From Alphaproteobacteria bacterium (GTDB lineage Bacteria; Pseudomonadota; Alphaproteobacteria; RF32; CAG-239), in contig JAEEYV010000039.1 of NCBI GenBank assembly GCA_016288295.1, positions 10,156-74,155 of the forward strand: 64,000 bases of DNA, written 5' to 3'. Positions within the stretch are counted from its first letter, which is position 1; each line of letters starts with the position of its first letter. Under the pieces are notes generated by a model. The model had not been told where the DNA came from. It saw nothing but the letters and a program-made list of their open reading frames with translations, and did not search any database. A program made the position numbers and the translations under genes. Shown in pieces: positions 8,356 through 8,983 of this stretch.

Positions 8356-8983
8356 ATGAAAACTATTGAAATTACCGTCAAAGTTAATGAAACCAAAGAA
8401 ATAGCAAAAGAAAAGCTATTAAGTAACGGCTATATCCAAACATCTAACGAATATTGTGATGATATTTACATGACACAAGATCTAAATTTGTTAAAAGACA
8501 AAAATAACATTCTTGAATTGTTAAATCGCTCTGTTTTATTGCGCCATCATTACGGAATGCTAGAGAGAGAGAGAGAGAGAGAGAGAGAGAGAGAGAGAGA
8601 GAAATTTTATCATACTAAAAAATAAATCATATCACCAAGAACAAACAACATCTGAAGAAATAATATCAGTCTCAATAGACGATATTAACAAAATGAAAGC
8701 ACTACTTGAAAAAATTGGTTTTAGAGAGCTGATAAGAAAACATTCTTACTTTAATAACTATACTAAAAATAATATCACACTTAACTTAGAAGAAGTAAAA
8801 GATATCGGGCTCTTAATTGAATATGAAAATGAAAATGATTTTACCAACAAATCTGACGAAGAAATAATACATATAAAAGAACAGATGTATGATACAATAA
8901 AACAGCTAGGAATAAATGTTGGAAAATCGTATGATATAAAAAAAGCTTATAACCTGATAATAAAAAAATACCACCTCCCATAA
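8356..8983 (+). pseudogene. CYTH-like (class IV adenylate cyclase / triphosphate tunnel metalloenzyme fold) gene, frameshifted at an internal (AG)n tract
   Basis: N-terminal part is IEITVKV...DDIYMT...VLLRHH. C-terminal part is KMKALLEKIGF...IRKHSYF...ITLNLEEVKDIGLLIEYE...QLGI...SYDIKKAYNLI. The order matches CyaB/CYTH blocks. The second frame is open from the repeat (8603) to 8983, so the two track ORFs (8293..8625 and 8693..8983) are one gene split by the repeat. Confidence 0.7.
8562..8602 (+). repeat. (AG)20.5 dinucleotide microsatellite inside a coding region
   Basis: Counted directly: uninterrupted alternating A/G from 8562 to 8602 (41 nt). Confidence 0.95.

Follow-up and report, generated by a model that had tools for sequence, protein, structure and literature searches.

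The locus described here raises the question of whether a gene split between two reading frames by a long AG repeat is a genetic switch or a gene on its way to being lost. The sequence-only reading of the window, by which we mean the whole 64-kb stretch of DNA that was analysed, took it to be a CYTH-like gene with a probable phase-variable contingency tract, currently OFF. The question divides into four parts: what the tract does to the reading frame, what the joined product would be, where the tract came from, and which account of its present state fits best.

Anatomy of the tract and the interrupted gene

TRF reported a single array, a perfect (AG)20.5 repeat of 41 nt (period 2, 100% matches, score 82). 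Matches to a 12-nt (AG)6 probe were confined to this array, and none are expected from 100 dinucleotide-preserving shuffles. It is the sole dinucleotide tract of at least five units within the 64-kb window; in 665 kb of related loci such tracts reach six units at most. The positions of the features discussed below are collected in Table 1.

Table 1. Features of the CYTH-like gene and of the adjoining island, in window coordinates
Feature	Position	Strand	Description
Sigma-70-like promoter	8293..8321	+	-35 TTGACA at 8293-8298, 17-nt spacer, -10 TATAAA at 8316-8321; 11/12 consensus positions
Ribosome-binding site AAAGGAAG	8342..8349	+	6 nt ahead of ATG 8356; read from sequence
N-terminal coding part	8356..8561	+	codons 1-68 plus two bases of codon 69; strand 1 IEITVKV, D36-I-Y38 (DxY), R63
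Perfect (AG)20.5 tract	8562..8602	+	present length throws downstream part out of frame
Premature TAA, current (OFF) frame	8623..8625	+	product 89 aa from ATG 8356
C-terminal coding part, +1 frame	8603..8983	+	126 codons, stop 8981-8983; K89/K91, E100-E101, ExE motif E156-Y-E158
Intrinsic terminator hairpin AAAACCGCC-N7-GGCGGTTTT with flanking T-run	8988..9012		dG -18.7 kcal/mol, z -3.8
tRNA-Trp gene	9702-9777	-	CYTH-like gene ~1 kb away
Tyrosine integrase	18067-19263		just inside far repeat of 9.6-kb island

In all three frames the AG tract is read as (ER)n or (RE)n, so that it never makes a stop codon itself. At the current length of 41 nt, translation terminates 21 nt past the tract. In the +1 frame, the sequence can be read from the tract as far as the terminal stop codon and includes the stretches KMKALLEKIGF, IRKHSYF and EVKDIGLLIEYE. 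This frame has no stop but the terminal one, as against 18 in every other frame, and of 20,000 shuffles not one remained open. The two halves are joined solely at tract lengths of 43 +/- 6k nt: ON lengths of 31, 37, 43 and 49 nt give products of 205, 207, 209 and 211 aa, and all other lengths give products of 84-93 aa. The tract, the frame shift and the repair proposed in the sequence-only reading are thus all borne out by TRF, shuffling and ORF translation; gain of one AG unit restores a single ORF of 209 aa and loss of two units restores one of 207 aa.

The repaired ORF aligns end to end with homologues of ~197 aa and retains each of the 25 residues that are invariant in the family, both before and after the tract. 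The N-terminal part is 54-64% identical to the homologues and 100% identical to the same part in another strain of the species (L071, see below). Twelve of the 97 subfamily-conserved positions deviate in the repaired ORF and 16-18 in other divergent, intact members; judged by this alignment, the deviations fall within the range of intact divergent members of the family.

The near-consensus promoter and RBS that had been claimed for the gene are both present, as TTGACA-17-TATAAA and AAAGGAAG. The promoter was read directly from the sequence, since the consensus scanner, which demands T at the sixth position of the -10 element, omitted it. None of 200 shuffles folded as well as the terminator hairpin, which, from its position, is placed to serve both the CYTH-like gene and the convergent ORF 9038-9517 on the minus strand. 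The 159-aa product of this ORF has only a weak resemblance to HIT proteins, with a Pfam HIT score of 19.2 bits (E 0.002) that stays below the cut-off and an HIHF stretch in place of the full HxHxH motif, and 5 of 160 residues differ between the window strain and L071.

Predicted product and its family

Sequence profiles place the product weakly. The score against Pfam PF01928 (CYTH) is 11.9 bits (E 0.19), below the gathering cut-off of 23.2, and the best NCBIfam match is TIGR00318 (cyaB), with E 4e-13 and 49.6 bits, below the trusted cut-off of 57.95. A sequence search of the PDB gave Saci_0718 (E 8e-6) and PH1819 (E 1e-4). An AlphaFold model of the ON product, that is, of the form with one added AG unit, was built on an alignment of 19 homologues and reached pLDDT 91 and pTM 0.85. 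When the model was compared with the PDB by Foldseek, the top 16 matches were all TTM/CYTH proteins (E 2e-11 to 7e-7, TM-score 0.62-0.78), the best being 7nsa (E 2e-11), followed by 2een, 2fjt, 1yem, ThTPase and AtTTM3. On the predicted structure, the assignment of the ON product to the CYTH/triphosphate-tunnel fold, an eight-stranded beta-barrel, holds. The term CYTH-like therefore stands for the fold and for weak sequence matches, and the Pfam CYTH profile itself stays below its cut-off. It had also been suggested that the in-frame product be modelled to see whether the (ER)n insert sits in a loop. AlphaFold places the (ER)7 stretch, residues 69-82, in a low-confidence hairpin loop between strands 60-68 and 83-94, with pLDDT <50 at residues 72-80.

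The active-site signature was judged by the criteria of the SaTTM paper, namely the ExExK hallmark, DxY, the central Arg of xRxR and the ExE metal-binding motif of beta-8 (PMC8233210). The protein has D36-I-Y38, the central Arg R63, the strand Lys K89, the EE pair E100-E101 and E156-Y-E158 in beta-8. By profile alignment to SaTTM, E156/E158 correspond to E135/E137, D36/Y38 to D38/Y40, and R63 to the second Arg of LRLR. The ExExK hallmark was not found: the first strand reads M-K-T-I-E-I-T-V-K, or T3-x-E5-x-T7-x-K9, in which one Glu is absent in either register. In the profile alignment E5 pairs with SaTTM E7 and T7 with SaTTM K9. The observation that the first motif is EITVK instead of ExExK was accordingly right, and it applies beyond this copy. 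The family alignment of 20 sequences (A1) shows no variation at E5 or T7; because T7 is invariant, the absence of ExExK is a trait of the whole family and not decay of this copy. Judged by its motifs, the product may lack enzyme activity even in the ON state.

Class IV adenylate cyclase was considered and rejected on motifs, as HFxxxxExExK is missing, the beta-8 motif is E-Y-E and not ExA, and the cyaB score is 49.6 against 57.95 bits. The HF motif is in fact impossible here, because E5 is the fifth residue of the protein. The description "CyaB-like" in the sequence-only reading therefore had to be given up.

The family itself is sizeable: a search of 1.84 billion cluster representatives matched 825 of them at E <= 1e-3, of which 316 reached E <= 1e-10. 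None of the 49 homologues in the protein catalogue carries a precomputed Pfam domain. Comparison of gene neighbourhoods found no conserved synteny among the closest homologues, searches of phage and plasmid collections (tblastn) gave no match, and a metagenome scan with the repaired protein returned a single relative, at 38%. The CYTH-like protein matched no surface, restriction-modification or PADLOC defence family. By these searches, this standalone gene, for a protein of roughly 195 aa, belongs to a family without annotation that is common in low-GC gut MAGs of Bacilli and Clostridia type.

The composition of the gene differs from that of its host. It has 26.6% GC without the repeat (about 27% overall) and lies inside a patch of 28-30% GC (~7950-9600) flanked by core-like genes of 40-47% GC. 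The core genes of the window include PPDK, FtsH, UvrC, GlmM, MurC, and FadL-like and OmpA-like outer-membrane proteins; GlmM is 70% identical to proteins of Alphaproteobacteria bacterium MAGs and 92% identical to that of an ENA contig (L063). By these matches the host looks to be an uncultured alphaproteobacterial lineage of fairly low GC content. The nearest relatives of the CYTH-like gene are on contigs of 22-26% GC labelled Bacilli, Firmicutes or Clostridia, in unrelated neighbourhoods. The foreign GC content, together with nearest relatives in such Bacilli-type MAGs, suggests horizontal transfer, which on the sequence comparison is the simplest reading for this gene.

Origin of the tract and its genomic surroundings

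At the site of the tract, homologues have a short variable hairpin loop, which in the nearest ones reads HHYG-KYREERK-W/Y. In this beta-hairpin loop they carry purine-only codons, AGA GAA GAA AGA, for R-E-E-R. The closest relative (L064, 66% identical in amino acids) has GGA AAG TAT AGA GAA GAA AGA AAG, in place of which the window has GGA ATG CT(AG)20.5 AAT. Compared with the homologues, a net insertion of 28 nt is present at AAG TAT AGA GAA GAA AGA AAG, and the 3' end of the tract lies over the ancestral purine run. This placement points to growth by slippage from a AGAGAAGAAAGA seed that already coded for Arg and Glu; on the sequence alignment, it is most likely that the tract grew in this way. 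A repeat or a lengthened loop was found in none of the 49 catalogue proteins, 60 genome loci and best 150 of the 825 profile matches. The pattern that would support a contingency locus, a repeat kept in orthologues or several such loci, was seen neither in the relatives examined nor in the 64-kb window.

A profile search of the protein catalogue returned P0196, which is exactly the 96-aa ORF at 8693-8983 of the window, and looking up this ORF led to two contigs of the same species. The first (L072), an 812-nt contig from the NCBI metagenome assembly GCA_016295205.1, matches window positions 8233-9044 with 100% identity and has the same 41-nt tract; the window and L072 are separately assembled contigs, which might derive from related data. 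The same 41 nt in a separately assembled contig makes it evident from sequence that the tract is not a one-off assembly artefact. The second (L071), an ENA scaffold of 10.4 kb, belongs to another strain; its flanks are 93-97% identical, and the gene occupies the same position. Window positions 8561-8647 are replaced there by 93 N, and the left contig ends with "...CGGAATGC", 1 nt before the tract. The visible coding parts of L071 (205 + 336 nt) are identical to the window.

The tract length is therefore resolved in two assemblies, the window and L072, and in both it is 41 nt and out of frame, with L071 gapped at this point. Comparison of related strains, which had been proposed as a check, established that the tract is shared with L072, and length variation was not seen between the two resolved copies. 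Two equal lengths speak neither for polymorphism nor for fixation of the out-of-frame state. Ten ON and OFF length variants were looked up as exact matches among 15 billion proteins, and none was found besides the window's own 96-aa C-terminal ORF. Exact-protein look-ups of the N-terminal fragment and of ORF 9038-9517 found nothing on record, and a scan of viral contigs with the left flank plus the start of the tract gave 0 matches. In the closest relative genome (L063, GlmM 92%) the contig stops ~22 kb short of the locus, and a JGI contig (L062) that is 99.7% identical ends 80 nt before the ATG.

No mismatch separates the window from L071 over 8286-9160, which covers the promoter, the gene, the terminator and the 3' end of ORF 9038-9517, and the flanks differ by 1.6% on the left (7922-8285) and by 6.6% on the right (9161-9709). 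This mosaic of divergence is consistent with recent recombination or import of a block of ~0.9 kb, 8286-9160.

Other changes in gene content are found nearby. A 9.6-kb integrated island (~9780-19367) is bounded by a perfect direct repeat of 43 nt, at 9737-9779 and 19368-19410, which corresponds to the 5' part of the tRNA-Trp gene. L071 represents the empty site for this island, with the tRNA joined directly to sequence past 19368. Duplication of the 5' rather than the 3' part of a tRNA gene is, to our knowledge, unusual. No repeat of the tRNA 3' end bounding a second island around the CYTH-like gene was found. Two island genes on the minus strand, 10153-10974 and 10975-11853, match the PADLOC candidate defence system PDC-M19 (M19B, E 8e-100; M19A, E 1e-102, DUF488-containing), and are adjoined by an XRE-type HTH gene (11942-12292) and a PD-(D/E)XK nuclease-like gene (12420-13376). 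At 7016-7568, L071 has an additional CutA1-family gene between the homologue of ORF 9038-9517 and tRNA-Trp. The presence of this gene in L071 and not in the window marks the surroundings of the tRNA as a hotspot of gene-content change.

Upstream of the locus, a 1.34-kb segment at 6583-7921 is missing from L071. The segment is of normal GC content and includes a small membrane ORF together with a gene for an SPFH/Band 7 lipoprotein. The junction lies between two short repeats that resemble each other, ACCAACAAAAAACAC and ACCAAAAAACAT; this arrangement suggests that recombination at short homologies gave rise to the indel. A 30-35% GC stretch further upstream encodes, at 5775-6386 on the minus strand, a 203-aa P-loop protein with weak matches to Zeta-toxin (E 2e-5) and AAA_33 (E 3e-6), and a 75-nt imperfect direct repeat is present at 3551-3625 and 4174-4248 (81% identical, 623 nt apart). 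The only two homopolymers in the window that reach the usual poly-G/C cut-off for phase variation are C7 runs. One, at 6959-6965, lies where the small membrane ORF 6741-6986 has its 3' end; the other, at 40158-40164, is inside ftsH, an argument that C7 runs mean little in this window.

Readings of the locus and comparison with known systems

For dinucleotide repeats, PhasomeIt predicts phase variation from at least six units (PMC6321876). The 20.5-unit tract is 3.4 times this cut-off and, as regards the coding region, changes in unit number switch the frame and one phase gives the full conserved product. At a length so far above six units, the frame must flip often, except under unusually effective mismatch repair; MutS is able to repair dinucleotide loops. 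By this analysis the tract is very probably hypermutable. We regard it as moderately probable that the locus is a real SSR frameshift switch in a recently acquired accessory gene, recently evolved, hypermutable and at present OFF. Of the contingency locus that was originally proposed, the two-frame switch anatomy and a length above the cut-off stand, and against it there is no repeat in orthologues and no other such SSR in the window.

A young pseudogene is the alternative that we take most seriously, although we hold it to be somewhat unlikely. Here slippage would have lengthened the repeat inside a gene that was acquired horizontally and could be dispensed with, leaving it out of frame; the repeat length would still change, with no selection for the ON state and with decay under way. 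This account agrees with the single OFF length in both assemblies that resolve the tract, with the lack of a repeat in every homologue examined (49 proteins, 60 loci, best 150 of 825) and of any ON variant on record among 15 billion proteins, with the foreign composition (26.6% GC without the repeat against 40-45% in the core), with the position of the gene in a patch of indels and islands, and with a family that has no ExExK. However, no second lesion is present: both halves are open, no family-invariant residue has been lost, and the promoter, RBS and terminator are undamaged. The tract is also perfectly pure, without the interruptions that accumulate in neutral repeats, and the two strains differ by 0 substitutions at this locus, so that there has been no time to separate decay from switching.

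We consider it improbable that the length was miscalled, the true tract being 43 nt and the gene ON with an (ER)7 loop, and the frameshift arising from consensus calling or PCR stutter. An undercount of one unit would be enough to account for the state now seen, stutter is common at dinucleotide tracts, and the L071 assembler failed to cross the tract. Against this, the window and the 812-nt L072 contig, separately assembled though perhaps from related data, both have 41 nt with flanks that are 100% identical. Recoding without any change in the DNA, by RNA-polymerase slippage or a +1 ribosomal shift on the AGA-rich run that restores the frame in a fraction of products, is very improbable: repetitive tracts can cause transcriptional slippage, which is established for homopolymers, but for dinucleotide tracts such slippage during elongation has not been established. 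Downstream of the tract there is no recognised +1 shift site, and AGA is the common Arg codon of this AT-rich gene. Programmed frameshifting as a candidate was dropped, as no supporting signal is present at the tract.

If the locus is the frameshift switch that we favour, its history and behaviour might be as follows. The purine-only R-E-E-R stretch would have become an AG tract through point change and replication slippage, and a tract of 20 units would frequently gain and lose units through slipped-strand mispairing. About one third of tract lengths would be ON, so that the population would hold ON cells, with a 209- or 207-aa protein and an (ER)n-lengthened loop, and OFF cells with fragments of ~86-89 aa. 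Three-unit changes would alter the length of the loop and keep the frame.

Whether such a switch has been selected is a separate matter. Given a frameshift switch, selection as a contingency locus, rather than a runaway repeat arising as a side effect in a dispensable gene, seems possible but leans towards the unlikely. No relative has the repeat, no other tract is present in the window and both resolved assemblies have the same OFF length; in addition, the product has no match among surface, restriction-modification or PADLOC defence proteins, the usual targets of phase variation. More doubtful still, and put forward as speculation, is a contingency locus caught at birth, in which, within a gut commensal alphaproteobacterial lineage, the purine-rich loop stretch of a freshly imported CYTH-fold gene expanded into a 20-unit AG tract that toggles the gene ON and OFF and tunes the (ER)n loop when ON; such a locus, ~1 kb from a tRNA-Trp gene on whose far side the island with the candidate defence system PDC-M19 is integrated, may gate costly or phage-related nucleotide or polyphosphate handling.

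The mechanism is a textbook one. The novelty lies in the gene family, in the apparent lineage of the host and in an exceptionally long tract, together with an ancestral state that is visible. A full-text literature search combining CYTH/TTM with phase-variable/SSR found no SSR phase-variable CYTH gene among its top matches. If the switching is real and selected, SSR phase variation would extend to an uncultured gut alphaproteobacterial lineage and to a newly linked protein class, and the locus would be a dated example of a contingency repeat born from ordinary codons, with the ancestral sequence visible in relatives. If the locus was indeed caught at birth, it would be the first SSR phase-variable gene of the CYTH family and evidence of SSR phase variation in uncultured gut Alphaproteobacteria. 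If the switching is not selected, the locus would instead be a clean example of a runaway microsatellite that inactivates a newly acquired gene. There is also a practical warning, as the tract broke one metagenome scaffold (L071) and gene callers fragment the gene; the P0196 fragment stands alone in its own cluster of the protein catalogue.

Known systems resemble the locus either in the fold of its product or in the arrangement of its repeat. The class IV adenylate cyclase CyaB (TIGR00318; Yersinia pestis 2fjt and 3n0z) has the superfamily fold in common with the predicted ON product. In contrast to CyaB, there is no HFxxxxExExK extension here, with four residues preceding E5, and the second residue of the beta-8 ExE is Glu, whereas Ala is strict in AC-IV enzymes (PMC8233210). 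SaTTM (Saci_0718; PDB 7ns8, 7nsa) and PH1819 (2een), archaeal TTMs of the CYTH superfamily (PMC8233210), also have the same fold, and with them the CYTH-like protein shares DxY, the central Arg, the Lys of the TYK strand (K89), the EE pair and the beta-8 ExE. At ~20% identity, however, it is one ExExK Glu short of them, and its hairpin loop is longer, YREER in the family and (ER)n in the window copy.

The arrangement of the repeat resembles that of the H. pylori oipA gene, with a CT repeat in its 5' region (PMC10564699), and of SSR contingency loci generally (PMC11868660, PMC6321876), which likewise have a pure intragenic dinucleotide tract. As in oipA-type loci, a unit change shifts the frame, one third of lengths are ON, and the OFF state gives a short truncated product. 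The tract described here is much longer, with 20.5 units against a cut-off of six, and it interrupts the gene after a third of its length, at a loop of a small protein that matched no surface family, whereas theirs lies in the signal-peptide region of a surface protein. Unlike theirs, the repeat here is not conserved in relatives and no length polymorphism was seen between the two resolved assemblies. The host also differs: it is of an uncultured, alphaproteobacterium-like gut lineage, rather than one of the classical pathogens whose phasome is known.
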